A DNA stretch of 64,000 nt from Clostridia bacterium (GTDB taxonomy: Bacteria > Bacillota > Clostridia > Oscillospirales > CAG-272): positions 89,989 to 153,988 of the forward strand of contig JAFOEU010000055.1 of assembly GCA_017387685.1 (NCBI GenBank). Direction: 5' to 3'. The notes below the pieces were generated by a model. That model saw only the letters and a program-made list of their open reading frames with translations. It ran no database searches and had not been told where the DNA came from. The position numbers and the translations under genes are program-made. Every line of letters starts with the position of its first letter. Position 1 is the stretch's first letter. This document shows, one piece after another, positions 1,057 to 49,502 of the stretch.

Positions 1057-1098
1057 AAAACAACAAAACTCACCGCTTTGGCGGTGAGTTTTGTTGTT
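1057..1098 (+). terminator. intrinsic terminator of the PFOR gene
   Basis: An 18-bp stem AAAACAACAAAACTCACCGC / GCGGTGAGTTTTGTTGTT with loop TTTG, 6 nt after the stop codon. Confidence 0.8.
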
Positions 1099-1314
1099 AG
1101 TTGCTAGTTGCTAGTTACTAGTTGCTGGTTGAAGGTGAATTTCCGAGCCGACGGCTCGGAAATTTTTGATTTTATCAAAAACAGCGGAAAAGTTTTTGAG
1201 GTTTCTTAAGGAACTTTTTTCAAAAAGTTCCTTAAGTCGAGCTCCGCAGAGCTCGAAACTCCCTTTTGCGCTTCGAAGCGACGGCGCCCCGCCGGCGTTT
1301 CGGAAGGAGTAAAA
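1094..1314 (+). repeat. composite modular repeat: 6x TTGCTAG-type heptamers, AAGGTGAATTT junction hairpin, palindrome CTTAAGGAACTTTTTTCAAAAAGTTCCTTAAG, CCGCAG-loop hairpin and a conserved tail
   Basis: Heptamers lie at 1094-1135 and the junction hairpin at 1131-1167. The downstream modules recur in reverse orientation at 19198-19289, 25515-25656, 29104-29225 and 49300-49392. Confidence 0.85.
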
Positions 1315-1337
1315 CCACCGCTTTGGCGGTGGTTTTT
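1311..1337 (-). terminator. intrinsic terminator (usable on both strands) downstream of the AAA ATPase gene
   Basis: AAAACCACCGCTTTGGCGGTGGTTTTT. It has the same CACCGCTTTGGCGGTG core as the hairpin at 1071-1086. Confidence 0.7.
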
Positions 1338-1360
1338 GGTTCAGAAGTAAAAATATTCGA

Positions 1361-2575
1361 TTATATAGCGGAATCAAGCAAAAAATCTCGTATATTCATA
1401 TGAATTATTCCGTCTCGGCTGAAATCGAATTCATCCATTGAGAGCACGTATTTGGGATAATTGTCGGCAACACCGACGTATGCTCCAAATTCACGCTCCG
1501 CCGTTTTATCCGATGCCAGCATATAGCAGACTTGAATATATATGCGTTTCCCGTTTTTGTCGCAAACAAGATCAATTTCCTTGTCGCCGTTTTTGCCGAT
1601 GCTTATCTTGTAGCCTCGTCGGAGCATTTCGAGGCAAACGATGTTTTCGAGGATCAATTCTATATCGCGCGTGTTGTTACCGTATAACGCCTGACGAAGA
1701 CCGTGATCGGAAAGATAATATTTTTCGTTGATCTTAAGAATTTCCTTGCCTTGCAGATCCATTCGGTTGATCTTATAAAATAGGAATGCTTTTTCGCATG
1801 CGGCTAGGTAATTTATTATCGTATCCACCGAAGCAGGACGCTTTTCGCTTTTTAAATATGAGGCGATGCTGCTTGCCGAAAAGGTTCGTCCGATATTTGC
1901 GATCGCGTAAGCCATAATGCGCTCGAGCAGGTCGATATCGCGCAAATTGTTTCTTTTAACAATATCCTTTATGACAACAGAAGCATAAATATCCTTCAGA
2001 TACTGCATTTTTGCATTTTCATCGAAAGGTGCGGTCGCGAGGAAGGGAAGACCGCCGTATTTGACATATTGAGTGAAATATTCGCCGATGCCGAGCTTTT
2101 CTCCCGCGGCATTTCTCGCTTCACAATACTCGGAAAAGGAGAAAGGATATATAGAAAATTCAACGTAACGCCCCGAAAGAAGAGTCGCATATTCTCCGGA
2201 CAGCATTTTTGCATTAGAACCTGTGATATAAATGTCAACGTCGGAGTTTACGCGCAGGGAATTGACACATTTTTCCCAATCGGATACCTCTTGGATCTCA
2301 TCGAGAAACAAATAAACGCGTCCTTTTATATCATCTATCCGCTTTTTTAGATGATCGTGTAAAGCCTCAGCGTTCGTCAGACTCGAGTAAGTCATATCCT
2401 CAAAATTAATGGATATGAACTGCTCGGGTTCTATGCCAGAAGCCATCAATTCTTTCTTAATAAGCTCAAGCATTATTGATTTTCCGCTTCTGCGGACTCC
2501 GACAATAACCTTGATAAGCTCGGTTTGGTTGATAAAAGGCCTTATTTGTGAAATATAGCTGTCTCTGTTAATCAT
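1361..2575 (-). CDS. AAA+ ATPase, DUF4143-type
   Basis: Walker A is GVRRSGKS and Walker B is VYLFLDEIQ. ORF 1361..2638 is trimmed to the ATG at 2575, which is preceded by a GGGGTGA RBS. Confidence 0.75.
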   Translation of the reverse strand: MINRDSYISQIRPFINQTELIKVIVGVRRSGKSIMLELIKKELMASGIEPEQFISINFEDMTYSSLTNAEALHDHLKKRIDDIKGRVYLFLDEIQEVSDWEKCVNSLRVNSDVDIYITGSNAKMLSGEYATLLSGRYVEFSIYPFSFSEYCEARNAAGEKLGIGEYFTQYVKYGGLPFLATAPFDENAKMQYLKDIYASVVIKDIVKRNNLRDIDLLERIMAYAIANIGRTFSASSIASYLKSEKRPASVDTIINYLAACEKAFLFYKINRMDLQGKEILKINEKYYLSDHGLRQALYGNNTRDIELILENIVCLEMLRRGYKISIGKNGDKEIDLVCDKNGKRIYIQVCYMLASDKTAEREFGAYVGVADNYPKYVLSMDEFDFSRDGIIHMNIRDFLLDSAI

Positions 2576-2937
2576 TGATATCACCCCGCTTTGATTCAGA
2601 TCAATAAATATTATATCAAAAATATAATAGAAAGTCAAGTCCGATTTTGATAAATTATCGACTATAATCGAAATTATAGCGCATAATGCGAAAAGTTTCG
2701 ATTATAATCGAAATTAATAGTTTGCGTGTTAAGGCTTGTTTTGAGTAAAAAGCCTCATTAATATTTGATTCGTATCGCAATTAATGTCTTCCAAATGGCA
2801 ATTACACGTGCAAAAAAATGAAGCCGTGTTTGCTCGGCGCATTCATAAATTCGGGCAAAAATGAGTCAAAACGGCGAAAATGGGCAAAAATATGCAATAA
2901 AATGTTCGAATGAGTTGCAAAAAATTGCAAAAAGGTA

Positions 2938-2966
2938 TTGACAAATGAAGATAATTGTAGTATAAT
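2938..2966 (+). promoter_or_regulatory. sigma-A type promoter of serC-serA
   Basis: TTGACA (2938-2943), a 17-nt spacer, then TATAAT (2961-2966). Phased A-tracts lie upstream. Confidence 0.7.
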
Positions 2967-3007
2967 TTCAGCAATAACATTTTACCGCGTTAAAAAGGAG
3001 AAATATT

Positions 3008-4093
3008 ATGAGCAGAGTATATAACTTTTCCGCAGGTCCTTCCATGCTTCCCATTCCCGTTCTTGAGCGCGCGGCGGCAGAAATGCTTGAGTACGGCACA
3101 AGCGGTATGTCCGTTGCCGAGATGTCGCATAGATCAAAGGATTTCGAGCCCATCATCGCAAAGGCAGAGGCTGATCTGCGCAAGCTTATGAACATTCCCG
3201 ATGACTACGCCGTCCTCTTCCTTCAGGGTGGAGCTTCGACTCAGTTCGCCGCAGTACCCCTCAACCTTCTCCCCGTTGGCGGAACTGCTGACTATATCGT
3301 TTCGGGTCAGTTCTCGGGCAAGGCTTACGAGGAAGCTAAGAAGTACGGCGACGTTCGCCTTGTTGCCACATCCAAGCCCGACGGATTCTCCTATATCCCC
3401 GAGGTAAAGCGCGAGGATATCAATCCCGATGCCGCTTACGTTCACATTTGCTATAACAACACCATTTTCGGTACTAAATATAACTACATCCCCGATACCG
3501 GCGACGTTCCGCTCGTTGCCGATATGTCCTCCTGCATCATCTCCGAGCCCGTTGACGTAACTAAATTTGCCGTTATCTACGCGGGCGCGCAGAAGAATAT
3601 GGCTCCCGCGGGTATGACTCTCGTCATCGTCCGCAAGGATCTGCTTGGTAAGGCTCGTCCCGAGTGCCCCTCGATGCTCGATTGGAATATAATGGCTGAG
3701 AACGGCTCGATGTATAACACTCCCCCCTGCTACACCATCTATATGGCGGGACTCGTCTACGAGTGGATCGAATCGCTCGGCGGTCTTGAGGTTATGAAGG
3801 AGATGAACGCGAAAAAGGCGGCTCTGCTTTACGATTACCTCGATTCGCAGGACTATTACATCGCTCCCGTAAGAAAGGATTGCCGTTCGATGATGAACGT
3901 AACCTTCGTCACAGGAAACGCAGACCTCGACAAGAAATTTGCCTCCGAAGCTGAAAAGGCGGGACTCAAGAACATCAAGGGCCACCGCGTAGTCGGCGGT
4001 ATGCGCGCCTCGATCTACAACGCAATGCCCTACGAGGGCGTCGAAGCGCTCGTCGCGTTTATGAAGGACTTTGCAAAGAACAACCCCAAGTAA
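3008..4093 (+). CDS. serC: phosphoserine aminotransferase
   Basis: The N-terminus MSRVYNFSAGPSMLPIPVLERAAAEM and the 361-aa length are typical of SerC. The RBS is AAGGAG. Confidence 0.92.
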   Translation: MSRVYNFSAGPSMLPIPVLERAAAEMLEYGTSGMSVAEMSHRSKDFEPIIAKAEADLRKLMNIPDDYAVLFLQGGASTQFAAVPLNLLPVGGTADYIVSGQFSGKAYEEAKKYGDVRLVATSKPDGFSYIPEVKREDINPDAAYVHICYNNTIFGTKYNYIPDTGDVPLVADMSSCIISEPVDVTKFAVIYAGAQKNMAPAGMTLVIVRKDLLGKARPECPSMLDWNIMAENGSMYNTPPCYTIYMAGLVYEWIESLGGLEVMKEMNAKKAALLYDYLDSQDYYIAPVRKDCRSMMNVTFVTGNADLDKKFASEAEKAGLKNIKGHRVVGGMRASIYNAMPYEGVEALVAFMKDFAKNNPK

Positions 4094-4105: not shown

Positions 4106-5272
4106 ATGAAGAATATCAAGTTAATGAATAAAATCGCCGCTTGCGGTACCGATATTTTTGACCGCGCGGTATATAACGTCGCTGACGACTGTGCGGCGCC
4201 CGAGGCGATAATGGTTCGCTCCGCCGCGCTTCACGATATGGAATTCAACCCCGAGCTTCTCGCGATCGCGCGTTGCGGTGCGGGTGTCAACAATATTCCG
4301 ATCGACCGCTGCACCGAGGCGGGAGTTGTAGTTTTCAACACCCCCGGCGCGAATGCGAACGGCGTTAAGGAGCTCGTTATCTGCGCGCTGATGCTTGCAT
4401 CGCGTGACGTTATCGGCGGCGCAAATTGGTCCGAAACGCTTACAACCGACGTTGCAAAGACGGTAGAGAAGGGCAAATCCGCTTTCGCAGGCTGTGAGCT
4501 TCGCGGTAAGACTCTCGGAGTTATCGGTCTCGGCGCGATCGGAGCAATGGTCGCAAACGCCGCGATCGACCTTGGTATGAAGGTTATCGGCTACGACCCC
4601 TACCTGACCGTTGACGGAGCGTGGAGAATTTCCCGTGCGGTAGGCCACGCGGTCACAACCGACGAAATTTTTGAAAAGAGCGATTATATCACCCTCCACG
4701 TTCCCGCTGTTGAGGCAACGAAGGGTATGATCCGCAAGGAAAATATTGATAAGATGAAGGATGGCGTCAAGATCATCAACCTTGCGCGCGCGGATCTCGC
4801 GATCGCGGCTGATATCAAGGACGCAATCGCGGCGGGCAAGATCTCGGCGTACGTCACCGACTTCCCGACCGAGGAAACCCTCGGTGTCAAGGGCATCGTT
4901 AATATCCCCCACCTTGGTGCATCCACGGGTGAGAGCGAGGATAACTGCGCGATCATGGCGGCAAATCAGCTCGTTGAGTTCCTTTCCACGGGTAATATCA
5001 AGAATTCCGTCAACTTCCCCGCGATCGATCTTCCTCCCCACGACGGCAGAAACGTCCTTGTCCTCCACGCAAACGTACCCGCGACCATCGCAAAGATCAC
5101 GACCGCCGTTGCGGAAAAGGGCGTCAACATCGAGCACCTTTCCAATAAATCCCGCGGCAACAACGCTTGCACACTCCTTGCCCTCGCCGTCGGCACCACC
5201 GACGCAGAGATCGCCGAAATGAAGAAGGCTATCGAAGCAAACGCAGGCATCTGGAGAGTAGTCGTTATTTAA
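4106..5272 (+). CDS. serA: D-3-phosphoglycerate dehydrogenase with a C-terminal ACT-like domain
   Basis: 2-hydroxyacid dehydrogenase NAD site GVIGLGAIGAMVA. The protein is 388 aa and the gene lies directly downstream of serC. Confidence 0.88.
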   Translation: MKNIKLMNKIAACGTDIFDRAVYNVADDCAAPEAIMVRSAALHDMEFNPELLAIARCGAGVNNIPIDRCTEAGVVVFNTPGANANGVKELVICALMLASRDVIGGANWSETLTTDVAKTVEKGKSAFAGCELRGKTLGVIGLGAIGAMVANAAIDLGMKVIGYDPYLTVDGAWRISRAVGHAVTTDEIFEKSDYITLHVPAVEATKGMIRKENIDKMKDGVKIINLARADLAIAADIKDAIAAGKISAYVTDFPTEETLGVKGIVNIPHLGASTGESEDNCAIMAANQLVEFLSTGNIKNSVNFPAIDLPPHDGRNVLVLHANVPATIAKITTAVAEKGVNIEHLSNKSRGNNACTLLALAVGTTDAEIAEMKKAIEANAGIWRVVVI

Positions 5273-5575
5273 GTGCAGAGTTAAGAGTGCAGAGTGCAGA
5301 GTTGAGGTGGATTTTCAAGCTCCGCTTGAAAATCATTGGTGCTTTAATTTTGTGCGGTGCTGATGCAATTTACTGCTGTGCTGAAATACAGAGAATAAAA
5401 TAAAAATCTCGGATATTTCGAAGCTTCGCTTCGGATATCCGAGATTTTTTAATTTGTTATGACTTTGGCTATGTGAAATTTAATCAGCACATCACAAAAT
5501 TATTAATATGGAATTTTCGCCACGGCGAAAATTTCCCTTCAACTCTGCACTCTGCACTCTTAACTCTGCACTTGA
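5273..5575. repeat. complete foldback element filling the serA / lipoprotein convergent spacer
   Basis: 5273-5305 is the exact reverse complement of 5539-5571 (33 bp of GTGCAGA-type heptamers). Junction hairpins lie at 5310-5335 and 5511-5535. A nested inverted repeat surrounds the central terminator. Confidence 0.9.
5402..5450. terminator. bidirectional intrinsic terminator
   Basis: AAAAATCTCGGATATTTCGAAGC-TTCG-CTTCGGATATCCGAGATTTTTT, with an A-run and a T-run flanking a long stem. Confidence 0.85.
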
Positions 5576-7153
5576 TCATTCCTCTTCCTCTTCGTCAACG
5601 TCGATAAAAATGACCTTTACCTGCGCGCTGCCGCGCTTGGTGACCTTGAGGGAGCGGTTGCGCGATACGGTGTAGGTCTTTCCGTCCGCCGTTACGCGCG
5701 CGGAGAAGCTGAAGCCGACCGAGGCAACGTGTCCGTTTGAATCGAAGTTTATATAGGCTTTGGCATCGTCGCAGGAGGTAACGCTGATCACGTCGGCATA
5801 AATTCCCGCGGCAAGCAGAGCTTCGCGTGCGAGCATTATTTTACCTTCTTGATTGATCGAAAAGGAAAGTCGTTCCGCCGTGTATTCCTCTATGCGGGCG
5901 AAAGCCCAAAAGGGAAGCATTGAACGGTCAAAGGGCGCGGTCAGAGTAGACTCGAGATTTTTTGCATTAAAGGTTGTGTCGACGAATATGCTTCCGCTAT
6001 TTATCTGCGAGAAGGCACGGCGGCGGTTGAAATGCGTTAAAACACGCGTTTTGCCCGAGCCGGTGTCAAACACTCTCTCAAATGTCGCTCCGATCTTTTT
6101 GGCGTATGCGTAATCGATTTTTTCACTCAAATGGCGTTCAGCCGTGCCGCCGATACGGATATCGTCGTTCTCCTGCAGCTCGAAAGCCTGATATCGCCCG
6201 AAAAACGAGTCGACGTCAGCAAGCGCGGCTTCATAAATCGTGAGCGCGGCGGAGTCGGGGATCAGAACGTATGAGGTCATCGCGGGGAGCGTGAGAGAGT
6301 TCTTTTCGTTAATGCCGCTCTGCTCGGTGCGCGAGGTAAGACGAAAAGACAAAACGTGATTGCCACCCCGCTCCACATCCGCCTCGAGAGATAACACCTT
6401 CTCCCTCATATGCGCCGCGGTGTCGGTGACGTAGAGAAATTCGGCTTTGGTGATCCTGAGCTCATATTTCTCGGTCAAGCCGAGCATTTTAGCGATCTCG
6501 CCAATACCCTCGGTGGTGATCTTATCAAATTTCAAGGTTATATTCTCGCTGTCGACTTCAACAGTCCCGTCCTCGAAGGCGGTCATGGGAAAATAATTTC
6601 CCGCCAGCTTGGAGAAGGACGAGATATCGTATCCTCCGAAGCGGTAGTTGCCGAATTTTCCGCCGTAACAGAGAAATCCGTCGATCAAGAAATATTCCTC
6701 ACTCTCGCCGTCCGATGTGCGCCTGAATGAGGCGTTTCCATCGCTTGTGAGAAGCTCGGAGAAGATTTCGTGGCGTGAGTTTACCCCGCCCTGAACGATC
6801 TCGGTCACGGTTTGTGTTTTTCGTGTACACGACGTGTATACCTCAGAGAATCTTTCCGATACCTCAAAGATCGTCTGTGCGGGAAGAGTTGCCATTACGT
6901 CCACAAGGGAGGTTTCCTCGGGCTCGGTATACTCTGGCTCGGTATACTCGGGCTCGGTTTCTATCGGCTCTGTCTTTGGAGGCTCGGTCACTTCTGTTTC
7001 GGGGGAAGTGGTTTCGGGAGCGAGGGTGGTTTCGGGCTCGGGGAGCTCCGTGATAGATGCGCTGATGACCTCGCCCTCATAGGGCGGCGTCTCGACCGCA
7101 CATGCAGACAAAAGCAATGAGCACGCGAGGACGAGCGGGATCAGGCGCTTCAT
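5576..7153 (-). CDS. lipoprotein of unknown function with a Thr/Glu/Pro-rich linker
   Basis: Signal peptide and lipobox MKRLIPLVLACSLLLSAC. Contains a TEPEYTEPEYTEPE repeat. The start overlaps the upstream gene by 4 nt. Confidence 0.7.
   Translation of the reverse strand: MKRLIPLVLACSLLLSACAVETPPYEGEVISASITELPEPETTLAPETTSPETEVTEPPKTEPIETEPEYTEPEYTEPEETSLVDVMATLPAQTIFEVSERFSEVYTSCTRKTQTVTEIVQGGVNSRHEIFSELLTSDGNASFRRTSDGESEEYFLIDGFLCYGGKFGNYRFGGYDISSFSKLAGNYFPMTAFEDGTVEVDSENITLKFDKITTEGIGEIAKMLGLTEKYELRITKAEFLYVTDTAAHMREKVLSLEADVERGGNHVLSFRLTSRTEQSGINEKNSLTLPAMTSYVLIPDSAALTIYEAALADVDSFFGRYQAFELQENDDIRIGGTAERHLSEKIDYAYAKKIGATFERVFDTGSGKTRVLTHFNRRRAFSQINSGSIFVDTTFNAKNLESTLTAPFDRSMLPFWAFARIEEYTAERLSFSINQEGKIMLAREALLAAGIYADVISVTSCDDAKAYINFDSNGHVASVGFSFSARVTADGKTYTVSRNRSLKVTKRGSAQVKVIFIDVDEEEEE
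6919..6960 (-). repeat. in-frame 15-bp tandem repeat encoding EPEYT units
   Basis: GGCTCGGTATACTCT GGCTCGGTATACTCG GGCTCGGTTTC on the + strand. Confidence 0.7.
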
Positions 7154-8344: not shown

Positions 8345-8402
8345 GCATAATCACGTTCCGCCCACGGAACACTTTTCGGGGGTTGCACCGCCTGCGGGCG
8401 GC

Positions 8403-8517
8403 GCGCGATATGCCTTCGGCACGATATATCCGCTTCGCGGATACGATATACCTGAAGGCACGATATATTTCGCAGAAGCGAAATGTTAAGGTAAATTTCC
8501 GCCAAGGCGGAAATTTT
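8403..8517 (+). repeat. repeat arm variant: ACGATATAT word + mini-hairpin units ending in TTAAGGTAAATTTCCGCC-AA-GGCGGAAATTTT
   Basis: The units are GCCTTCGGC, CCGCTTCGCGG, CCTGAAGGC and TTCGCAGAAGCGAA, each preceded by a CGATATA word. The junction hairpin lies at 8486-8517. Confidence 0.8.
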
Positions 8518-8607: not shown

Positions 8608-10263
8608 ATGAAAAAATATACCGTTGGAATAGATTTCGGAACGCTTTCGGGCAGAGCTGTGCTCGTTGACGTTATGACGGGCGAGGAGTGCGCAAGCGTC
8701 GTGATGGACTACCCTCACGCCGTCATCGACAGCATCCTTCCCGCGAGCGGTGAGGTGCTCCCGATCAATTGGGCACTCGAAGACCCGCGCGATTATCTCG
8801 CAGTTCTCGAATTTCTTTTCCCCGCGCTCTGCCGCGAGGCGGGCATCGAAAAGGAGCAGATCGTCGGTGTCGGCATCGACTTCACCTGCTGTACGATCCT
8901 TCCGATCAAAAAAGACGGCACCGCGCTCGTTTCTCTGCCCGAGTTTGAGCAGAATAAGCACGCCTACGTCAAGCTCTGGAAGCATCACGCCTCCCAGCCG
9001 TGGGCGGACCGTATGAACGAGGTTGCCGCAGAGCGAGGCGAGACCTTCGTCAATTATTTTGGCGGTAAGATATCGAGCGAATGGCTCTTCCCGAAGCTTC
9101 TCCAAACCGCAAAGGAAGCCCCCGAGGTCATAGAGGCGGCTGATTACTATATCGAGGCGGGAGATTGGCTCAATTTCTTGCTCACCGGCGTGCAGAAGCG
9201 CGGATATCTTTTCGCGTCCTACAAGGCGGAGTATCTGCCGGACGTCGGATACCCCTCCGACGAATATCTCGCGGCGGTCGATCCCGAGCTACCCGAGCTC
9301 GCGCACCGTCTGCTTGACGCCCCCATCGCGCAGATGGGCGAGTGCGTCGGTCGCGTTACCAAAGAGGCGGCTGAAAGATTCGGTCTTGCCGAGGGTACTG
9401 CCGTTGCCGCGTCGATCCCCGATGCCCACGTTGCCGCCCCCGCTGTTGGACTGACCAAGCCCGGCGATATTTACGGCATTTTCGGCACTTCCAATTGCTA
9501 TTTTACACTTGCTGATATTTACAGAGATATTGGCGGAATCTGCGGATACGTTCCCGACGGTCTTATGCCGGGTTACTTCGGCGTTGAAGCGGGACTTTGC
9601 GCCGTAGGCGACCATTTTGCGTGGGTTGTGGACAATCTTGCAACCGCAGAGGACAAGGCGGAAGCCGAGCAGCTCGGAATTCCCGTCATTCAGCTCCTCG
9701 TCCGCCGCGCGGCAAAGAAAAAGCCGGGCGAAACCGGACTTCTCGCCCTCGACTGGTGGAACGGAAACCGAAACATCCTCGTTGACGGCAATCTGACGGG
9801 ACTTTTGATCGGTATGACGCTCCGCACCAAGACCGATGATATCCTCCGCGCCCTTATTGAGGCGACCGCGTTTGCGACCAAGGTCATCATCGACCGTATG
9901 GAGGAATGCGGAATGAAGATCGACAGCCTCATCGCCGCGGGCGGAATCGCGCGCAAGGACGCATTTACGATGCAGGTCTACTCCGACGTCCTCGGCATCC
10001 CGATCAATGTAATTTCCTCAAAACAGGCTCCCGCACTCGGCAGTGCTATCTACGCCGCCGTTGCCGCAGGCGAATACCCCGACATTTTTGCCGCCTCCGA
10101 CGCTATGAAGAGCCCGATCTACAGCAGTTATACCCCCAATAAAGAGAACGAAAAGGTCTACTCCGCACTCTACCGCGAATACCTCACCCTTCACGACTAT
10201 TTCGGTCGCGGCGGGAACGACGTTATGAAGCGTTTGCTTAAGATCTCGCAGGGGGAGATTTAA
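8608..10263 (+). CDS. araB: FGGY-family sugar kinase, most likely L-ribulokinase
   Basis: The N-terminus GIDFGTLSGRAVLV and the 551-aa length match ribulokinases as I remember them. Confidence 0.75.
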   Translation: MKKYTVGIDFGTLSGRAVLVDVMTGEECASVVMDYPHAVIDSILPASGEVLPINWALEDPRDYLAVLEFLFPALCREAGIEKEQIVGVGIDFTCCTILPIKKDGTALVSLPEFEQNKHAYVKLWKHHASQPWADRMNEVAAERGETFVNYFGGKISSEWLFPKLLQTAKEAPEVIEAADYYIEAGDWLNFLLTGVQKRGYLFASYKAEYLPDVGYPSDEYLAAVDPELPELAHRLLDAPIAQMGECVGRVTKEAAERFGLAEGTAVAASIPDAHVAAPAVGLTKPGDIYGIFGTSNCYFTLADIYRDIGGICGYVPDGLMPGYFGVEAGLCAVGDHFAWVVDNLATAEDKAEAEQLGIPVIQLLVRRAAKKKPGETGLLALDWWNGNRNILVDGNLTGLLIGMTLRTKTDDILRALIEATAFATKVIIDRMEECGMKIDSLIAAGGIARKDAFTMQVYSDVLGIPINVISSKQAPALGSAIYAAVAAGEYPDIFAASDAMKSPIYSSYTPNKENEKVYSALYREYLTLHDYFGRGGNDVMKRLLKISQGEI

Positions 10264-10325
10264 GTGGCTAGTGACTAGTGGCTAGTGACTAGTGAAGGTG
10301 AATTTTCGCCAAAGGCGAAAATTTT
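10264..10325 (+). repeat. repeat arm: GTGGCTA/GTGACTA heptamers + AAGGTGAATTTTCGCC-AAA-GGCGAAAATTTT
   Basis: The arm starts on the nucleotide after the araB stop. It has five heptamers and then the junction hairpin. Confidence 0.85.
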
Positions 10326-10782: not shown

Positions 10783-10786
10783 AATA

Positions 10787-10861
10787 CTTTTCGCCCACGG
10801 CGAAAAGTTACCATACCTTTTCCCTTTTCCCTTTTCCCTTTAACCTTTCCCCTCTTTCCCC
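10787..10861 (-). repeat. repeat arm (reverse orientation): hairpin CTTTTCGCC-CAC-GGCGAAAAG + GTTACC + CCTTTTC heptamers
   Basis: Heptamers occupy 10816-10861. The arm ends 10 nt before the ATG at 10872. Confidence 0.8.
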
Positions 10862-12734: not shown

Positions 12735-13583
12735 ATGCATATTAATATCAATATCGGTACAAGTGAAAAGGATTTCAACACCGAAAAGAAGAAAAAGCTC
12801 ACACCCGAGCAGAAGACGAAGATCAAAAATGCGGTAAAATCGGGTTATGGAAAGCTCCGCGTTGCCGCGGGCAGACTTTATTCGACCGTTGAGGACAAGG
12901 TCTTTGACGGCAGATGCTTCCTCTCCGAGCTGAAAGAGGGGATCCTTGAAGACGTTGCTGCCGTCCGTGAGCGAGACCCCGCGGCGAGAAGCGACATTGA
13001 GGTCATGCTTCTCTATTCGGGCGTTCACGCGATGCTCGCATACCGCGTGGCGCATAAGCTTTACGTCAATGAAAAATTTCTCCCCGCGAGAGCGGTTTCA
13101 CAGCTTGCGCGATTCCTGACGGGAATTGAGATCCACCCCGGCGCGCAGATCGGTAAGCGACTTATGATCGACCACGGCTCGGGCGTCGTAATCGGCGAGA
13201 CCTGCATCATCGGCGACGATTGCACGATCTATCAGGGCGTAACCCTCGGCGGTACGGGTAAGGACACGGGCAAGCGACACCCCACACTCGGCAATAATGT
13301 AATGGTCGGCTCGGGCGCAAAGGTCCTCGGACCGTTCAAGATCGGCGACGGCGCGAAGATCGCGGCGGGCGCGGTGGTACTCAAAGAGATCCCCGCGGGC
13401 GCGACTGCAGTCGGCATCCCCGCGAAGGTAGTGCGCCGCAAGGGCGAACGCGTTGAGGAACAGCTCGACCAGATCCACATCCCCGACCCCGTATCGCAGC
13501 AACTCGGAGAGCTTGAGGCGAAGATAGCTGAACTTAAGAGCGAGATCGAGGAGCTCAAGAAGGGCGAGGAAAGTGCAGAGTGA
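12735..13583 (+). CDS. cysE: serine O-acetyltransferase with N- and C-terminal extensions
   Basis: RERDPAARS and hexapeptide repeats (IHPGAQIGKRLMIDHGSGVVIGETCIIGDDCTIYQGVTLGG). The RBS is AAGGAG. The last codons and the stop lie inside the heptamer repeat. Confidence 0.88.
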   Translation: MHININIGTSEKDFNTEKKKKLTPEQKTKIKNAVKSGYGKLRVAAGRLYSTVEDKVFDGRCFLSELKEGILEDVAAVRERDPAARSDIEVMLLYSGVHAMLAYRVAHKLYVNEKFLPARAVSQLARFLTGIEIHPGAQIGKRLMIDHGSGVVIGETCIIGDDCTIYQGVTLGGTGKDTGKRHPTLGNNVMVGSGAKVLGPFKIGDGAKIAAGAVVLKEIPAGATAVGIPAKVVRRKGERVEEQLDQIHIPDPVSQQLGELEAKIAELKSEIEELKKGEESAE

Positions 13584-13741
13584 AGAGTGCAGAATGCAGA
13601 GTTAAGGAGAATTTCCTTGCCTGCGGCTGCGGAAATTTTCAATTCTGATATAAACTCAACTCAAACTTTATAATAAAATTATTTTTCGCTTCAGCGAAAA
13701 ATTACCGTAACTCTGCACTCTGCACTCTGCATTCTGCACTG
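13573..13741. repeat. complete foldback element (GTGCAGA arms) between cysE and the GDPD gene
   Basis: Left heptamers lie at 13573-13607 with a hairpin to 13640. The right hairpin is at 13681-13703 and CTCTGCA heptamers at 13711-13741. Confidence 0.85.
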
Positions 13742-23025: not shown

Positions 23026-23150
23026 TCGGCTTCGCCGAGTGATAATCTCGCTTCGCGAGAGTGATAATCCGCCTGCGGCGGAGTGATAATTTCCGCTGCG
23101 CGGAAAATAAAGGTGAATTTTCTCGCCTTCGGCTCAAAAATTATTAAATT
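23026..23150 (+). repeat. repeat arm: 3x AGTGATAAT + mini-hairpin units, then AATAAAGGTGAATTTT and a degenerate hairpin
   Basis: TCGGCTTCGCCGA GTGATAAT CTCGCTTCGCGAG AGTGATAAT CCGCCTGCGGCGG AGTGATAAT TTCCGCTGCGCGGAA. Confidence 0.8.
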
Positions 23151-25514: not shown

Positions 25515-25738
25515 ACTCCTTCCGAACAGCCGCCGGGGCGGCGTCTGTTCGAAGCGCGGAGGGAGTTTCGCCGTCTGCGGACGGCGACTTAAGGCTCTGC
25601 CTTAAGAAACCGCAAGTTTTTGAAAAAACTTGACTAAAACTTTCCCGCTATCTTTATTTCGCCGCAGGCGAATTATCACTCTCGCGAAGCGAGATTATAA
25701 CTCTGCCGTAGGCAGATTATCACTCGCGCTCTGCGCGA
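25515..25738 (-). repeat. composite repeat (reverse orientation) ending in ATTATCACT + mini-hairpin units
   Basis: ACTCCTTCCGAA...TTCGAAGCGC..GGGAGTTTCG-CCGTCTGCGGACGG-CGACTTAAGG...AAAACTTTCCCGCT, then the array at 25657-25738. The mazF ORF ends inside the array. Confidence 0.8.
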
Positions 25739-26339: not shown

Positions 26340-27149
26340 ATGAATTACTGGACACAATCAAAGGATAATATATACGTTGCCGCTCATCGCGGATGGAGCA
26401 CCGTTTACCCCGAAAATACTCTCCTCGCATTTAAAAAGGCTATCGAGATCGGTGTTGACCAGATCGAGACCGACGTTCGCATCACCCGCGACGGCGAGCT
26501 TGTCTGCATCCACGATGCCGCCGTCGACCGCACCACAAACGGCACGGGTAAGGTCTGCGACAAGACTCTCGCCGAGCTCAAAACTCTCGACGCAGGCTCT
26601 TGGAAGGGCGCGGAATTCGCGGGCGAGCGCATCCCCACCTTCATCGAGTTTATGGAGCTCGTCAAGGATCATCCCACGATGACCCTCGATATTGAGCTTA
26701 AGGAATACCCCGTTGACGGACGTGACGAGATCGCATACGAGGTCTGCGACCGCGTGCTTAAGATCATAGATGATTACGGCTTTACCGACCGCGTGGTCAT
26801 CAACACCTTCAACGGCAAGCTCCACGAATATATGGAAGAGAAGTACGGCTCGAAATACCGCCGCCACATCTACTACCCCCTCACCCACATGGGCAAGGTC
26901 AAGCGCGACCCCTACACCTCCTCGGCGTACTGCTGCTGTATGTTCCGCGCACTTTACAGCCCGATCAATATGGCGACAAAGGAGGAATTCGACCGTATGA
27001 TCGCTCTCGGAGTCCGTCCTTGGGCACCCGCGGGAGTCAAGACTCAGGAGCACGTTGACGAGGTCATCGCCTGCGGCGGCGAGCTTATCACTTGCAATAA
27101 TCCCGATGAGATCCTTGCATTTTTGAGAAACAGAGGAAAGCATAATTAA
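26340..27149 (+). CDS. glycerophosphodiester phosphodiesterase (second copy)
   Basis: ORF 25869..27149 is trimmed to the ATG at 26340, which has a GGAGG RBS and the promoter TTGACT-17-TATAAT (about 26284-26312). Contains the motifs AAHRGWSTVYPENT and ETDVRITRDGELVCIHD. Confidence 0.85.
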   Translation: MNYWTQSKDNIYVAAHRGWSTVYPENTLLAFKKAIEIGVDQIETDVRITRDGELVCIHDAAVDRTTNGTGKVCDKTLAELKTLDAGSWKGAEFAGERIPTFIEFMELVKDHPTMTLDIELKEYPVDGRDEIAYEVCDRVLKIIDDYGFTDRVVINTFNGKLHEYMEEKYGSKYRRHIYYPLTHMGKVKRDPYTSSAYCCCMFRALYSPINMATKEEFDRMIALGVRPWAPAGVKTQEHVDEVIACGGELITCNNPDEILAFLRNRGKHN

Positions 27150-27208
27150 GTGCAGAGTTCAGAGTGCAGAATGCAGAGTTAAGGTAAATTTTCGCGTTGC
27201 GAAAATTA
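27150..27208 (+). repeat. repeat arm: GTGCAGA heptamers + TTAAGGTAAATTTTCGC-GTT-GCGAAAATT
   Basis: The arm starts on the nucleotide after the stop codon. The AATTTTGTGCGGTGCTGAT module also seen at 5350 follows it. Confidence 0.85.
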
Positions 27209-27275
27209 TTTCTGCGATAATTTTGTGCGGTGCTGATAAGATTTTGTGCTGAATTGAAATTGGAAGAGTAAATTG

Positions 27276-27323
27276 AAAAACTCGGATATTTTGAAGCTGG
27301 GCTTCTCGATATCCGAGTTTCTT
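27276..27323. terminator. bidirectional terminator
   Basis: AAAAACTCGGATATTTTGAAGC...CTCGATATCCGAGTTTCTT. It has the same CTCGGATAT stem as the terminators at 5402 and 45224. Confidence 0.75.
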
Positions 27324-27329
27324 ATTTAT

Positions 27330-29090
27330 TTAGGGAAGGACTATCATAAGTCCGTTCGCGACTGCACGGAGTGAGCCGGCGGAGGGGCTGTTTTCGGTTA
27401 CGAGCTCTCCCTTTTCGTTTTTGAGGATGAAGGTACTCGATCCGCCGCCGTCGAGGTTGATCGCGTTGACGCAATCGAGGGTGGACATGATGTACGCGAG
27501 GTCGGCGAGAGACGCGCCGTTCGAGATCTCGGGCTGTCTGCCGTCAACGACGATGAGCACGATCGTTCCGTCCGAGGTCACGCCCGCCGCGGTACGGGGA
27601 TGGCGGGTGTCGGAGAATTCTGTTCCGATCGAGAGGTTGTCAGTGCCGCCGTTTTTGAGGATTATGTGCGAGCCGCCGACAGCGGTGAAGAGCTTGTCCT
27701 TATAGTTCGCGTATTCGGCAGAAGTACCCATAACGGCGTTGCCGTCGTTTGTGATTCCGAACCAGGGGCGTTCACCGGTGCCGCTGATAAACACGCCGTC
27801 CTTGATGCAAAGACCGCGCATCACATTCGTTCCGCCCATATCGAAGAAGTCGGCGTTGACTCCCGCGATAACGTTTTTGCCGTTCGAGATCGCGGAGGTG
27901 AGCTGTTTCTTCATATTTGCAACTGTACCCTTCTTGTCCGCGCTGTCGGAGGGCATCGTGGTCAGGATAGTCGCCGCGCCCGGCTTTATGCTGATAGCAT
28001 AAGCGCGAACGTTTGCGGAATTTTTATCGGTATAAACGATCTCGGTGTAGATGACGCCGGGTGCGACCTCGACCGAGGTTCTTGTTGCCTCGCGGAGCTT
28101 ATTCGTTCCGTTTGGAACGTGGAGTCCCGAGAGGTTTCGGCTGCCTGAAAGCTCGATCTTATATTCGCCCGAAACGCCTGTGGGCATATATTCATAGAGG
28201 AATCTTTGCGCGCCTGCCGCGCCTGCAGAATCGCCCTTGAAGTCGATAAAGATATTACCGTCCGCTTCTGTGATAAAATAGCGGTTTGTAGCGAAATACT
28301 TCTGATCGCCGTGGCTTCCGTCGGGCTTGCCACAGCCGTAGAATATCGCGGGACCGCCCTTATAGTTCGCAATCGGAACGGTTTTGAGGTTGACTCCGCA
28401 GACCTTGCTGATGCCCTGAATGATCAGATCGATATTCTTGCCGTTCTTTGTTGCATCGACGATCGAGTATTCGGAGATCTCGCGCTCGCCGAGCTGGAGG
28501 GAGGTTATCGGATAGCCATTTGTATAAAGCTGATTTTGACCTGCCTTGAGCTCTGCCGCCGTGCCCTCAGACGTGACCTTGCCGTTCTTGTCCTCGGTGT
28601 AGCCGAAGATATCCTTGAGGAAGTTTTCAACTGCGGTAACGGTCGATTCGGGCGAGCCGCCGCAGATGACGATCACGTTTTCGCTGACGATCTTATAGGT
28701 CCAATCGTAGTATGTAAGCGACTCGCGTGCCGCAACGGAATCGGCGCGGTTGGTTGCACCGACAAGTATTTCGTATTCGTTCGGAACGACCTCGGCACCC
28801 TTTTTGGTGAAGTCGGTCGTCATCGGGAGCTTGAAGCCCATCGCGCTTTCAAGACCGCGAGAGAGGAGCTGTATTGCCGCCACCTCGCTTGAATCCGAAT
28901 CGTCGGGTCGGACGAGTTTATAATCCGCCGTCAGGGAAAATGAGGGAGATTCGGTTTCGGGAGCGTCGGTGATAGCTTCGGTTATCTGTTCTGTTGTGAT
29001 CTCACCTTCGCCGCCCGTGCAGGATACAGCACCGAGCAGGATGCAGGCGAGCATAATAAGAGAAAGTAATCTCAAAAATTTATTTTTCAT
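27330..29090 (-). CDS. lipoprotein with a C-terminal phosphodiester glycosidase (NAGPA/DUF2233-like) domain
   Basis: Lipobox LLGAVSC. The C-terminal region GVNADFFDMGG...RTAAGVTSDGTIVLIVVDGRQ...NLDGGGSSTF is present. Confidence 0.7.
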   Translation of the reverse strand: MKNKFLRLLSLIMLACILLGAVSCTGGEGEITTEQITEAITDAPETESPSFSLTADYKLVRPDDSDSSEVAAIQLLSRGLESAMGFKLPMTTDFTKKGAEVVPNEYEILVGATNRADSVAARESLTYYDWTYKIVSENVIVICGGSPESTVTAVENFLKDIFGYTEDKNGKVTSEGTAAELKAGQNQLYTNGYPITSLQLGEREISEYSIVDATKNGKNIDLIIQGISKVCGVNLKTVPIANYKGGPAIFYGCGKPDGSHGDQKYFATNRYFITEADGNIFIDFKGDSAGAAGAQRFLYEYMPTGVSGEYKIELSGSRNLSGLHVPNGTNKLREATRTSVEVAPGVIYTEIVYTDKNSANVRAYAISIKPGAATILTTMPSDSADKKGTVANMKKQLTSAISNGKNVIAGVNADFFDMGGTNVMRGLCIKDGVFISGTGERPWFGITNDGNAVMGTSAEYANYKDKLFTAVGGSHIILKNGGTDNLSIGTEFSDTRHPRTAAGVTSDGTIVLIVVDGRQPEISNGASLADLAYIMSTLDCVNAINLDGGGSSTFILKNEKGELVTENSPSAGSLRAVANGLMIVLP

Positions 29091-34430: not shown

Positions 34431-34645
34431 AGGGGATAATAGAGATAAGTTGCTCCCGAAGGGAGCAGTGATAATCTCGCTTCGCGAGAGTGATAATCCG
34501 CCTTTCGGCGGAGTGATAATTTGCCTGCGGCAAAGTAAAGGTAAATTTCCTCGCTTTGCTCGGAAATTATCGAATGATTTATTTACTTTCAGCGAAGCTG
34601 AAATTATCACTCTCGCGAAGCGAGATCATCACTGCCCCTCGGGCA
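34431..34645. repeat. foldback element with AGTGATAAT + mini-hairpin arms (about 4 left units, 2 right units)
   Basis: The left arm is 34431-34535. The junction hairpin AAGGTAAATTTCCTCGC-TTTG-CTCGGAAATT is at 34536-34568. The right arm TTTCAGCGAAGCTGAAATTATCACTCTCGCGAAGCGAGATCATCACT is at 34587-34645. Confidence 0.8.
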
Positions 34646-42548: not shown

Positions 42549-43058
42549 CGAGATCGGGTTAATCTCGCTTCGCTCGAGTTATAATCCGCCTTCGGCGGAG
42601 TGATAATCGCCTTGCGGCGAGTGATAATTTGCCTTCGGCAAAATGAAGGTAGATTTTCGCCGAGGCGAAAATCTTTGATTTAAATAATAAGCGATGTTAC
42701 AAATAAGCCTTCCCCGGCGGGGAAGGTGGCAGCCCTTGCGGCTGCCGGATGAGGGGATCGCCGTCTGTACCGCAGACACGACAAGCGTATATGCATTTTC
42801 ATATAATTGAAAATTTCCGCCTCGGCGGAAATTCACCTTTATTTTTCGCGCAGCGAAAATTATCATTCTCGCGAAGCGAGATTATCATTTTGCCGAAGGC
42901 AGATTATCACTCGCCGCAAGGCGATTATCACTCCGCCGAAGGCGGATTATCACTCGAGCAAAGCGAGATTATCACTCCGCCGAAGGCGGATTATCACTCG
43001 AGCGAAGCGAGATTATCACTCCGCCGAAGGCGGACCATCACTCGAGCGTCAGCGAGAT
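42549..43058. repeat. large foldback element inside the ABC transporter operon (3 left units, structured core, 9 right units)
   Basis: Left words start at 42577, 42599 and 42620, with the junction hairpin at 42645-42673. The right junction hairpin is at 42809-42841. Right words ATTATCAYT start at 42859, 42881, 42903, 42924, 42946, 42968, 42990, 43012 and 43034. Confidence 0.9.
42686..42790 (+). ncRNA. conserved structured motif, copy 1 (function and functional strand unknown)
   Basis: H1 is CCTTCCCC-GGC-GGGGAAGG (42708-42726). H2 is GGCAGCC-CTTGC-GGCTGCC (42728-42746). GGATGAGGGGATCGCC follows. H3 is GTCTG-TACCG-CAGAC (42763-42777). Confidence 0.4.
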
Positions 43059-43074
43059 AGAAAGGACTTCAAAA

Positions 43075-46359: not shown

Positions 46360-46364
46360 TTAAA

Positions 46365-46432
46365 GTTACTAGTTGCTAGTTATTAGTTACTAGTTAAAGG
46401 TAAATTTCCGCCCCGATGGGGCGGAAATTTTT
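46365..46432 (+). repeat. repeat arm: GTTRCTA heptamers + TTAAAGGTAAATTTCCGCCCC-GAT-GGGGCGGAAATTTTT
   Basis: The arm begins 5 nt after the rbr stop. It matches the reverse-oriented arm at 48087-48153 at about 42 of 48 positions. Confidence 0.85.
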
Positions 46433-47012: not shown

Positions 47013-48088
47013 GATTCATATTCCCTCAAAACGGCGACTGCATAAATGCAAATGACGGCTTACCGCTCAAAGTACTCGTTGAAGCACCTGCCGATGGCGA
47101 TATTTACGTCGGCGGCGTGAAAGCCGAATTTTCGGACGGCGTGTGGAGTACAACCGTGCCGATTTCCGCATATAAAACCACTCTCACAGCCGAAAACAGA
47201 AAAAACGGCGATAACTGCGCCGTCACTCTGCTGAAATTTGCCGATCCCGTGGGCAAGTTCCGCCTCTCATCCGATGATAACATCCTCTTTTTGCAGGATA
47301 TTACGAAAAATCAGGATAAATACACCTCGATTTTCGATAACCCCTACCTCGCGCTTTACAAAAAAGCGCACGATCTCTACGGCGCGTGCATTCATCTCAA
47401 TCTGTTTTACGAATATATCCCCGACGAAAAATATTTCGCCGCCCATCCCGATTATTTCAATCTCTCGATGATGACGGACAAATTCAAGTCGGAATTCGAG
47501 GCGAATTCGGATTGGCTCAAGCTCGCATTCCACTCAAATGCCGAATTCCCCGATAAGCCGTATAAATTCGCGACCGCAGAGCAGATCACCGAGGATTTTC
47601 TCAAGATTCGCCGCGAGATCGTTCGCTTCGCGGGGGAGAGCTCGACGACGAACTCGACCACCGTTCATTTCGGTGCGGCGAACCGCGAGGTCGTCCGCGC
47701 ACTCCACGCCCTCGGTCTGCGCTCGCTGACGGGGTATTTCAGACGCAATGCAAAGGGCGAACCGAGCGTTTCCTACTATTTTGAGGACGAAAGGCTTGAA
47801 CATATCGGCTCGCGCGACTTCTGGTACGATGAGAGCGAGGATATGATCTTCGCGCAGATCGATCTTGTGCTCAATGAAAAGACCTACTCCGACGTGATGG
47901 AAGCCCTCCCGAGGATCGCGGACGATCCGCACCGCGGCGGTTTCATCTCGCTGATGATCCACGAGCAGTATTTCCACCCCGACTACCGCCGCCACCTCCC
48001 CGATTTCGAGGCACGCGTGCTTGATTCTTGTGCATTCTTGCATAAGAGGGGATACATTGGCGAGCATATATCAAATATTACAAAATAA
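47009..48088 (+). CDS. hypothetical 359-aa protein
   Basis: It overlaps the upstream gene by ATGA. I recognise no motif with confidence. Confidence 0.5.
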   Translation: MRFIFPQNGDCINANDGLPLKVLVEAPADGDIYVGGVKAEFSDGVWSTTVPISAYKTTLTAENRKNGDNCAVTLLKFADPVGKFRLSSDDNILFLQDITKNQDKYTSIFDNPYLALYKKAHDLYGACIHLNLFYEYIPDEKYFAAHPDYFNLSMMTDKFKSEFEANSDWLKLAFHSNAEFPDKPYKFATAEQITEDFLKIRREIVRFAGESSTTNSTTVHFGAANREVVRALHALGLRSLTGYFRRNAKGEPSVSYYFEDERLEHIGSRDFWYDESEDMIFAQIDLVLNEKTYSDVMEALPRIADDPHRGGFISLMIHEQYFHPDYRRHLPDFEARVLDSCAFLHKRGYIGEHISNITK

Positions 48089-48153
48089 AAAATCCGCTCG
48101 AAAATCGAGCGGATTTTTACCTTTAACCAGCAACTAACAACTAGCAACTAGCA
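48087..48153 (-). repeat. repeat arm (reverse orientation): hairpin/terminator AAAAAATCCGCTCG-AAAA-CGAGCGGATTTTT + ACCTTTAACC + AACTAGC-type heptamers
   Basis: The arm ends 7 nt before the stop of the minus-strand transporter gene. The hairpin also serves as terminator for the + gene ending at 48088. Confidence 0.85.
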
Positions 48154-48160
48154 ACTTTTA

Positions 48161-49150: not shown

Positions 49151-49299
49151 AGAATTTACCTTTCTTCCTATTTTATATAACCACAATATTTTACCACTTT
49201 TTCCCCCGCGCTTCAAGTACAAATATTGACGATTTTATACATTTTATGCTAATATTTTTGTGCCAAGTGCTGTTGCGCCGTCTGTGGTCGGCACGGGGT

Positions 49300-49455
49300 G
49301 ACAAGACAGAGTCGCAGCTTGCCGCAGGCAAGTGTGAACTTCTTGAAAAAGTTCGATCAAAACTTACCGCTGCTGTTGTCTTTTATTTGATTGAAAATTT
49401 CCGAGCAAAGCGAGGAAATTCTCCTTAACTCTGCACTCTGCATTCTGCACTCTGT
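49300..49455 (-). repeat. composite repeat (reverse orientation) ending in CTCTGCA heptamers
   Basis: CTTGCCGCAGGCAAG...GAACTTCTTGAAAAAGTTC...AAAACTTACCGCTGCTGTTGTCTTTTATTTGATTGAAAATTTCCGAGC-AAAG-CGAGGAAATTCTCCTTAA, followed by the heptamers. Confidence 0.8.
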
Positions 49456-49473
49456 ATTTTGCCTCCTCAAATA

Positions 49474-49502
49474 TTGACAACTCGCCAAAATAATGATATA
49501 AT
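49474..49502 (+). promoter_or_regulatory. sigma-A type promoter of the sulfatase gene
   Basis: TTGACA, a 17-nt spacer, then TATAAT. Confidence 0.65.

Follow-up and report, generated by a model that had tools for sequence, protein, structure and literature searches.

The region analysed here is the 303-bp spacer between a serA-like gene and a convergent lipoprotein-like gene (positions 5273-5575) in a 64-kb stretch of contig JAFOEU010000055.1, hereafter the window, whose host is an uncultured, spore-forming gut Clostridia lineage. The spacer forms one nested palindrome with outer arms made of tandem 7-nt words, and cassettes of the same build lie between other genes in other genomes. We put the chance at about even that it is a complete copy of a dispersed ~300-bp palindromic terminator cassette, similar to repetitive extragenic palindromes (REPs) and bacterial interspersed mosaic elements (BIMEs), which is kept palindromic by copying at the DNA level. 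An earlier note, made by a model from the sequence alone, had taken the spacer for the archetype of a foldback element; its claims are considered where the results bear on them. Compared assemblies and loci are cited by L-numbers (L001, L292 and so on).

A nested palindrome between convergent genes

The serA-like open reading frame (ORF), whose homologues carry the name D-3-phosphoglycerate dehydrogenase, is followed at the very next base by an array of heptamers, and the reverse complement of this array lies beside the stop codon of a 525-aa ORF (5576-7153) with a lipoprotein signal. Between the two stop codons, the parts are arranged as follows.

5270-5272, plus strand: TAA stop of the serA-like ORF (4106-5272); the left array begins at the next base
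5273-5307, plus strand: left arm array, GTGCAGA GTTAAGA GTGCAGA GTGCAGA and end word GTTGAGG (4+1 units)
5310-5334, plus strand: hairpin 1, GATTTTCAAGC-TCC-GCTTGAAAATC, with a perfect 11-bp stem, a 3-nt loop and an A/T foot (repeat finder)
5346-5364, plus strand: left half of the inner box, AATTTTGTGCGGTGCTGAT, also found at 27219-27237 and in L075 and L109
5402-5449, unstranded: central bidirectional intrinsic terminator, with an A-run, perfect 15-nt arms (CTCGGATAT..) and a T-run
5483-5501, minus strand: right half of the inner box, AATTTTGTGATGTGCTGAT
5512-5533, minus strand: hairpin 2, AATTTTCGCC-AC-GGCGAAAATT, with a 10-bp stem whose upper part is unlike that of hairpin 1 (repeat finder)
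5537-5571, minus strand: right arm array, the reverse complement of the left arm, one unit shorter in strain L292
5576-5578, minus strand: stop codon of the convergent lipoprotein-like gene, 4 nt beyond the right arm

The arms at 5273-5305 and 5539-5571 are reverse-complementary at 33 of 33 positions, and the repeat finder extends them to 45 nt at 91% complementarity (5271-5315 and 5529-5573) and detects, further inside, an inverted pair of 27 nt at 85% complementarity. The central element, with perfect 15-nt arms at 5402-5416 and 5435-5449, combines with its flanks a G+C stem-loop, a T-run and an upstream A-run, as expected of an intrinsic terminator, and is homologous to the terminators of L109 and of a half cassette elsewhere in the window, copy E (CTCGGATAT...ATATCCGAG; ~27274-27318). 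The predicted fold of the 303 bp is the nested palindrome both as RNA (-155.6 kcal/mol, z = -19.3) and as single-stranded DNA (-94.1 kcal/mol, z = -18.8). Thus the earlier note was right about the perfect 33-nt heptamer arms directly after the serA stop, the 4-nt distance between the right arm and the convergent stop (5571 versus 5576-5578), the inner inverted pair (boxes at 5346-5364 and 5483-5501), the central bidirectional terminator and the nesting of the whole spacer. Both hairpins that it proposed are also present, the second with a stem unlike the first, but their limits needed correction: hairpin 1 has a 3-nt loop and ends at 5334, rather than a 4-nt loop and an end at 5335, and hairpin 2 spans 5512-5533 rather than 5511-5535, a shift of 1-2 nt.

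L001, L002 and L291, all of them independent assemblies, contain the same 303-nt spacer, and L292 contains it in a slightly different form. Samples in which the element is carried include ERZ28436047, ERZ28653911, ERZ28654171 and SRR12529397. Across the spacer, L001 differs from the window by two single-nucleotide polymorphisms (SNPs) at the mirror positions 5309 and 5535, both of which yield the family consensus GGTA. L292 carries both mirror SNPs and one more, and it lacks one 7-nt unit in the right arm only, which makes its arms unequal. An assembly artefact, which the earlier note had named as a possibility and which would fit the frequent ending of short-read contigs within arrays, has next to no probability as the source of the palindrome: the spacer was recovered in these four other independent assemblies, with strain SNPs and a unit indel, and a diverged orthologue of the same architecture is present in L211. 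Short-read contigs of the species (L003-L005, L294 and L295) stop at most ~30 nt after the serA or the lipoprotein gene, within the arrays; the heptamer-array family fragments assemblies of metagenome-assembled genomes (MAGs).

At the RNA level, nothing in the whole window reached the gathering threshold of Rfam 15, and in e-value mode no match to 5200-5650 or 49180-49480 reached a gathering score; the sub-threshold matches at 5200-5650 mostly overlie the central terminator. A promoter scan of 5150-5700 and 27000-27450 returned no sigma-70-like site. These searches bear on a reading in which two convergent small RNAs would each arise from the GATAATTT box after a hairpin and end at the shared terminator. 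Many copies do have a -10-like GATAAT/TTTAAT box 9-12 nt past hairpin 1 and a strong terminator ~60-90 nt downstream. However, with no sigma-70-like site, no -35 element at workable spacing, nothing above the Rfam threshold, and pairing between array and box that relies on weak G-U helices and is inconsistent between copies, we regard such small RNAs as very improbable. The pairing itself, of the array with a downstream UUUUGUGC/GUGCUGA box, was discarded as a candidate: it is predicted via G-U-rich helices for A and E; B and other copies lack it or pair differently (A and B being the spacer arms).

Related cassettes and the serA site in other genomes

Full homologous cassettes are present at non-orthologous loci with other flanking genes in L027, L058 and L109, and an orthologous one is present in L211. 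The three non-orthologous cassettes can be aligned with the window from end to end (70% column identity); their inner distances are 234-240 nt, compared with 229 nt in the spacer. The consensus fold is the same nested palindrome, comprising 115 pairs, 39 of which show compensatory double changes in at least one sequence. L061 and L111 hold a further family of cassettes, in which the same arrays enclose other interiors. Copies have spread to new intergenic sites.

The spacer downstream of serA was compared among relatives, as the earlier note had proposed, and holds a palindrome, a solo array or a plain terminator depending on the species.

L211 (SerA 91% identical): syntenic; the same nested palindrome, with GTGCAAA/GGGCAAA words in both arms and other hairpin tops
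L210 (SerA 93%): a solo GTGACTA array beginning at the stop codon
L205-L209 and L212 (SerA 83-92%): plain terminators, with other neighbours

Since these states differ among species with SerA identities of 83-93%, the site turns over quickly. Wherever both arms occur at the serA site, they co-vary. The serA spacers of sister species differ and are not alignable, and every same-species assembly that spans the spacer carries the element.

In a scan of one genome per species, the word array was found in more than 119 loci. MAGs with the same architecture belong to gut and rumen Clostridia, labelled Eubacteriales, Acutalibacteraceae, Oscillospiraceae and Clostridia RGIG; arrays from other phyla are longer and frequently form both arms of one hairpin. 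Array hairpins of this kind, in which a short core separates an array from its inverted counterpart, are seen with various words in Planctomycetes, Acidobacteria, Gemmatimonadetes and some viral contigs (L056, L098, L115, L231 and others), and the number of units in these non-Clostridia hairpins is often equal on the two sides.

Hairpins and arm complementarity are maintained across the family. In 32 distinct modules, the stems differ in sequence yet contain 343 Watson-Crick pairs, one G-T pair and no A-C pair. Because they are almost purely Watson-Crick, the asymmetry between G-U and A-C pairs was uninformative as an indicator of the transcribed strand. For 20 inverted pairs, arm similarity is 28.9 of 35, against 26.3 for random arrays drawn from a background that mixes genomes (permutation p = 0.0003), and four of the 20 reach an arm identity of at least 33/35, compared with 2.4% in that background. 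Whole-array word order also recurs across species, the pattern of the spacer arms (A/B) in L068 and L080 and that of copy E in L065. Over all loci, 66 of 109 GTGCAGA-class arrays have exactly four units; of the same 109, 20 are preceded by the triplet TAA and 18 by TGA. The notion that GTGCAGA is a privileged word was abandoned: exact triple arrays in viral contigs number 13 (11 for GTTGCTA), against 2, 1, 7 and 34 for scrambles of the same composition.

The module family within the window

The earlier note presented the spacer as an archetype; it is not a singular one, as the module of its arms occurs ~17 times in the window. Word-array matches number 19 where 0.22 are expected, and 11 heptamer arrays are built alike: four 7-nt words precede an end word (GTTAAGG, GTGAAGG or GTTACGG), and after another 1-3 nt follows a perfect hairpin, its 5' arm opening (A/G)(A/C)TTT(T/C)C. 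Words are alike within one array and different among arrays, with GTGCAGA words at 5273+, 5571-, 13572+, 13740-, 27149+ and 49457-, GTTGCTA/GTTACTA at 1093+, 46364+ and 48156-, GTGGCTA/GTGACTA at 10263+ and GGGAAAA at 10857-. The ~17 end modules (GTTAAGGT plus hairpin) include those of 20-22-nt-unit and CGATATA arrays. The 11 period-7 arrays compare with 0-3 arrays for periods 5, 6 and 8-11, and no period-7 excess is found in control loci from unrelated Clostridia (381 kb), a set of SerA relatives from a metagenome scan of which the best are only 50-67% identical and too distant for spacer comparison.

Besides the spacer, the window contains the following copies.

1093-1165, plus strand: copy G, GTTGCTA-word array, GTTGAAGG and hairpin, terminator-like
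10263-10323, plus strand: copy H, GTGGCTA/GTGACTA array from the stop codon of an FGGY kinase, and hairpin
10786-10857, minus strand: copy K, hairpin and GGGAAAA-word array, antisense to the flanking genes
13572-13740, unstranded: inverted pair of copies C (13572-13638, plus) and D (13681-13740, minus), both with GTGCAGA words
27149-27320, plus strand: copy E, a half cassette with an array at a stop codon, hairpin, box AATTTTGTGCGGTGCTGAT and terminator, adjoining a convergent gene
42560-43058, unstranded: inverted pair of 22-nt-unit arrays (AGTGATAAT plus small hairpin), each ending in GAAGGT and a hairpin module
46364-46429, plus strand: copy I, GTTACTA/GTTGCTA array 4 nt past the rubrerythrin stop, and terminator hairpin
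48087-48156, minus strand: copy J, GTTGCTA array and a hairpin forming a bidirectional terminator
49396-49457, minus strand: copy F, GTGCAGA array and hairpin in a divergent promoter region
52444-53143, unstranded: another inverted pair of arrays built of 22-nt units, with the end module of the pair at 42560-43058, enclosing a 380-nt GC-hairpin insert

For seven of the 11 arrays, the stop codon of an ORF in the same orientation lies 0-5 nt before the start of the array or within it; the cysE-like ORF (12735-13583) ends within array C, so that heptamer words supply its last codons and the TGA (13569-13583). The remaining four are inverted partners or solo copies lying antisense beside the 5' side of a gene. 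The order ORF-array-hairpin holds in every window case. Four inverted array pairs are present in the 64 kb, with ~nine solo modules versus eight paired arms, and of 13 modules that bear an array, four lie antisense to the gene beside them. Every arm starts with TTAA or TTGA, the flanks of the spacer being TTAA on the left and TTGA on the right. The hairpins of modules G, K and D were also called terminator-like.

The period, unit number and placement of the arrays are reminiscent of periodic recognition sites. HutP-type proteins recognise NAG triplets 4 nt apart in RNA beside a terminator, and the omega repressor, a ribbon-helix-helix protein, binds contiguous 7-bp heptads in DNA; the 7-nt period, the conserved 2-3-nt core, the small number of units and the adjacent terminator hairpin resemble these systems by analogy only, and the sites here, likely hundreds per genome (~17 per 64 kb), differ from a single operon. 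The arrays could accordingly be imagined as a binding platform on which an oligomeric protein would dock, with one subunit or domain on each of four to five units, either on RNA (HutP-type NAG-N4 recognition, cold-shock domains or S1) or on DNA (omega/ribbon-helix-helix on 7-bp heptads), and the bound protein, next to the hairpin, would modulate termination, the stability of the 3' end or the local structure of the DNA. A unit number that peaks sharply at four and, at copy I, stays the same in ten strains although bases change, a periodic NAG/AGT core common to all words (GTGCAGA, GTTGCTA and GTGACTA) while the other positions vary, and the location of arrays directly 5' of the hairpin, starting at stop codons, all favour such a platform, as do the four-unit preference shared by Xanthomonas arrays (PMC4692102) and the proposal of S1, Csp and CsrA as binders of TAACTGA repeats (PMC4679880). 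Since the arrays here are unable to form G-quadruplexes (G4), G4 cannot be the shared reason for the four-unit preference. We nevertheless consider the platform unlikely: no protein emerged as a candidate, the units of any one array agree at the variable positions, which indicates duplication rather than motif selection, orientation to transcription is mixed (four of 13 antisense), a 3-unit arm is tolerated in strain L292, and the 22-nt-unit arrays carry the same end module.

Strain comparisons reveal how individual copies change. At copy I, ten strains with identical rubrerythrin have a constant number of units, with single and clustered base changes within units (AGTTATT/AGGCGCT). The hairpin loop of this copy (46410-46422) is flipped between strains, GAT to ATC or the reverse (CCCCGATGGGG versus CCCCATCGGGG; L215, L220 and L221), so that the top of the hairpin is in effect inverted. 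Strains also differ in whether the rubrerythrin module is directly followed by a structured element of ~181 nt (CAAAAACAGCGGAAAAG...GGAGTAAAAC-hairpin-...TTTTTAT; L215, L216, L218 and L221), which has TTTTAT on either side and also follows copy G (1166-1345). In L215 (3040-3550), the rubrerythrin 3' module (copy I, 46360) is joined to the region after copy G, upstream of serC (1160-3008), a genome rearrangement with its breakpoint at the two module copies G and I. Judged from the sequences, these strain polymorphisms appear to be marks of palindrome and repeat dynamics at the DNA level, namely slippage, recombination of copies with each other, and either template switching or conversion.

Slippage is also the core of a neutral explanation, in which the arrays would be simple-sequence repeats grown in situ beside pre-existing terminators and the palindrome would be two arrays that happen to face each other at a convergent gene pair. 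Heptameric repeats are over-represented in many bacteria, with polymerase slippage suggested as their source (Mrazek et al. 2007, as cited in PMC4692102), many-word heptamer arrays occur across phyla and viruses, and L292 has lost a 7-nt unit. Set against this are the recurrence of whole-array word orders in different species (L068, L080 and L065), the tight peak of the unit number at four and its stability in ten strains at copy I. Moreover, the conserved end word, hairpin foot, box and terminator point to common descent of modules and cassettes, and 70%-identical cassettes at other loci suggest copying between loci. We judge the neutral explanation improbable.

Several other repeats of the window touch on the module family. 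Arrays of 22-nt units with the GAAGGT plus hairpin end module lie at 23029, 34467, 42560, 43058, 52444 and 53143, and stretches of such units cover 23029-23150, 25668-25729, 34467-34570, 42560-42680, 42810-43060, 52444-52570 and 52950-53143. Each unit consists of AGTGATAAT and a 4-5-bp GC hairpin whose stem varies from unit to unit; most of the arrays end in GAAGGT and an AATTTYC hairpin module, and they form two outward-facing inverted pairs. GC-rich palindromic inserts (GGGGAAGG..., GGCAGCC... and GTCTGTAC...), themselves inverted repeats, are located at 42680-42810, 52570-52950 and L210:520-880, and those in the centre of the 22-nt-unit pairs resemble another small nested repeat family. A third array type, made of CGATATA plus hairpin units (8395-8515), ends in the GTTAAGGT plus hairpin module; at this spacer L292 has other repeats and an inserted DUF6809 gene instead, and CGATAT-hairpin arrays of a similar kind lie downstream of serA in L206. 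Unlike the rest of the window, the minus-strand block of essential genes at 53200-64000 (FtsH, HPRT, TilS, DnaB, L9 and GdpP) is free of modules. A conserved stretch (CGACTCTGTCTTGTCACCCCGTGCC...) at 49240-49340 on the minus strand, between copy F and the start of a Mem_trans gene (48161-49222), also occurs after a module in L121 (~7870) and may be a candidate leader element; it has no Rfam match.

Explanations, precedents and significance

In the explanation that we favour, a half-cassette consists, from the outside inwards, of TTAA or TTGA, often the stop codon of the host gene or the bases just past it, then of four 7-nt words and a GTTRAGG end word (~35 nt, C-poor), a perfect 9-13-bp hairpin with an A/T foot, and a GATAATTT...TGAT box, with the two halves joining at a strong bidirectional intrinsic terminator. 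The cassette would be a non-coding, structure-forming repeat that gives 3'-end and terminator structures to both convergent genes, and in function it would resemble REP/BIME elements and the pairs of heptamer repeats in Xanthomonas and cyanobacteria. Template switching or gene conversion, acting from arm to arm as well as from copy to copy, would keep its arms complementary, and occasional 7-nt slippage would change the unit number.

Several points weigh against this explanation. Bidirectional termination for both convergent genes is predicted from sequence, and hairpins 1 and 2 of the spacer have no good T-run and were not called terminator-like. The arm-similarity test, through its mixed-genome background, bears less firmly on copying between arms. 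The model leaves unexplained why arrays keep so close to stop codons (0-5 nt) and why the array always lies between the hairpin and the neighbouring ORF, even at gene 5' ends (D, F, K and 43058); it also gives no reason for the four-unit preference and no account of how copies reach new loci. Finally, the near-perfect Watson-Crick hairpins and the conserved TTRA/GTTAAGG boundaries could just as well be the sites that an enzyme acting in trans recognises.

The last point leads to the possibility, which we hold to be real if clearly the less probable one, that the cassette is a non-autonomous mobile element similar to foldback elements, REPINs or miniature inverted-repeat transposable elements (MITEs), with the inverted arrays and hairpins serving as ends for an enzyme encoded in trans that perhaps acts on hairpinned single-stranded DNA. 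Insertion next to TTAA or TTGA would then place the element next to stop codons, and TTAA or TTGA does open every arm. Full cassettes of constant size at non-orthologous loci of several genomes, the same arrays around different interiors (the second family in L061 and L111, and the paired 22-nt-unit arrays that enclose GC-rich inserts), the perfect and covarying hairpins with their covarying arms, and the quick gain, loss or replacement at the serA site among sister species are also consistent with mobility. On the other hand, no direct target-site duplication was found, the flanks of L109 (ATTGA...TCAAT) and of the spacer (TTAA...TTGA) being parts of the inverted repeat. Pfam scans of the ~50 ORFs in the window, which are ordinary chromosomal genes (SpoIIR, DnaB, L9, FtsH, TilS, GdpP, and PTS and ABC components), detected no transposase, HUH, reverse transcriptase or other mobility gene, and no RAYT (Y1 HUH) gene lies within the 64 kb. 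The two genes bracketed by copies I and J were tried as candidates for the enzyme and rejected, the first having a lipoprotein signal peptide and neither a Pfam match. A BLAST search of a plasmid collection gave no match. Strains show no clean polymorphism between empty and filled sites, the copies are only ~70% alike, and thus show no sign of recent bursts, and solo modules (~nine) are as frequent in the window as paired arms (eight, in four pairs).

The likeness to eukaryotic Foldback elements drawn in the earlier note therefore holds in part. Long inverted arms of short tandem sub-repeats, a variable centre and dispersed copies of near-constant size are shared with Foldback elements and MITEs, whereas the Clostridia cassette has no direct target-site duplication or transposase in the window, and its arms also occur solo, are not identical between copies and are unequal in one strain. 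The earlier note's comparison with pneumococcal BOX elements can be made more specific: the order here is array-hairpin-box-terminator rather than boxA-boxB(n)-boxC, with no match to an Rfam family.

REPs, BIMEs and REPINs are many short extragenic palindromes, often at 3' ends and between convergent genes; REP/BIME copies form inverted doublets and mosaics with conserved linkers, a doublet evolves as a unit with compensatory changes, and target duplication is absent. The Clostridia family, with ~17 modules in 64 kb and inverted doublets with covarying arms and hairpins, is similar in these respects. Its hairpins, however, are preceded by GTTAAGGT(A/G) and never by a GTAG-type tetranucleotide, its arms carry arrays of 7-nt or 22-nt units, which REPs lack, and the cassette measures ~300 bp compared with ~100 bp for a REPIN.

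The earlier note was mistaken in holding that no bacterial repeat has such a grammar. Literature searches returned no named Clostridia repeat of this type, but the grammar of heptamer arrays and convergent pairs is already published: Xanthomonas genomes contain ~185 GGGAATC arrays each, mostly of four units, including 70-75 cases of two close arrays in convergent orientation (Rehm et al. 2015, PMC4692102), and STRR and TAACTGA heptamers are further precedents. About 90% of the Xanthomonas arrays are intergenic, and the mean distance to the ORF is 28 nt on the upstream and 160 nt on the downstream side; the arrays vary in sequence and length between sister species, no function was found, and the four-unit preference was tied to G4 formation (PMC4692102). 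The Nostoc heptamer GGGGAYT is likewise an intergenic simple-sequence repeat (PMC4692102). Shared with the Clostridia family are dispersed tandem 7-nt words, intergenic location, the four-unit mode, convergent pairs and proximity to the upstream ORF. In contrast to the Xanthomonas words, GTGCAGA, GTTGCTA and GTGACTA have no GGG runs and fall outside the G-tract subclass; without G-tracts, no G4 is possible. The Clostridia arrays further differ in their conserved GTTAAGG end word and perfect hairpin, their start 0-5 nt from stop codons, the conserved ~300-bp cassettes with box and terminator, the 22-nt-unit variant and the gut Clostridia host.

Other heptamers have been described in cyanobacteria (STRR; Mazel et al. 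1990, as cited in PMC4692102), in Beggiatoaceae, Cyanobacteria and Bacteroidetes (TAACTGA repeats, for which S1, Csp and CsrA were suggested as possible binders; MacGregor 2015, PMC4679880) and near recF and recO in Nostoc (bioRxiv 10.1101/2022.06.06.494920). These resemble the Clostridia arrays in having several words per genome, 2-6 copies per set, an intergenic location and a postulated, unidentified binding partner. Their usual place is at promoters or shortly before start codons, that of the Clostridia arrays right after stops, and no conserved hairpin module or palindromic cassette has been described for them. What is new here is the host lineage, the four-unit rule in non-G4 words, the conserved end word and hairpin, the anchoring at stop codons, the 22-nt-unit sister form and the conserved 300-bp cassette.

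Intergenic heptamer repeats have been known in bacteria since 1990 and are statistically over-represented in many genomes, with no function or generating mechanism established. This Clostridia lineage offers an unusually clean case, with its fixed 4+1 units, conserved end word and hairpin, stop-codon anchoring and 22-nt-unit form, and with ~300-bp cassettes that are comparable across species and strains. In practice, short-read assemblies are broken by these elements, which also mark the breakpoints of rearrangements in gut MAGs. Because the non-G4 words of Clostridia obey the same four-unit, convergent-pair and ORF-proximal rules as those of Xanthomonas, the G4 explanation of these rules is weakened, and a shared non-G4 cause for the arrays of both becomes testable. 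As a speculative proposal, which we consider doubtful, the four-unit array and perfect hairpin might be the recognition end of a novel bacterial system, either a cassette-copying enzyme acting on hairpins or single-stranded DNA or a tetrameric reader with a 7-nt period. If the enzyme version were true, copying to sites beside TTAA/TGA stops would constitute a true prokaryotic foldback-type element; in either version, the same machinery would lie behind the four-unit convergent heptamer pairs of Xanthomonas and cyanobacteria.

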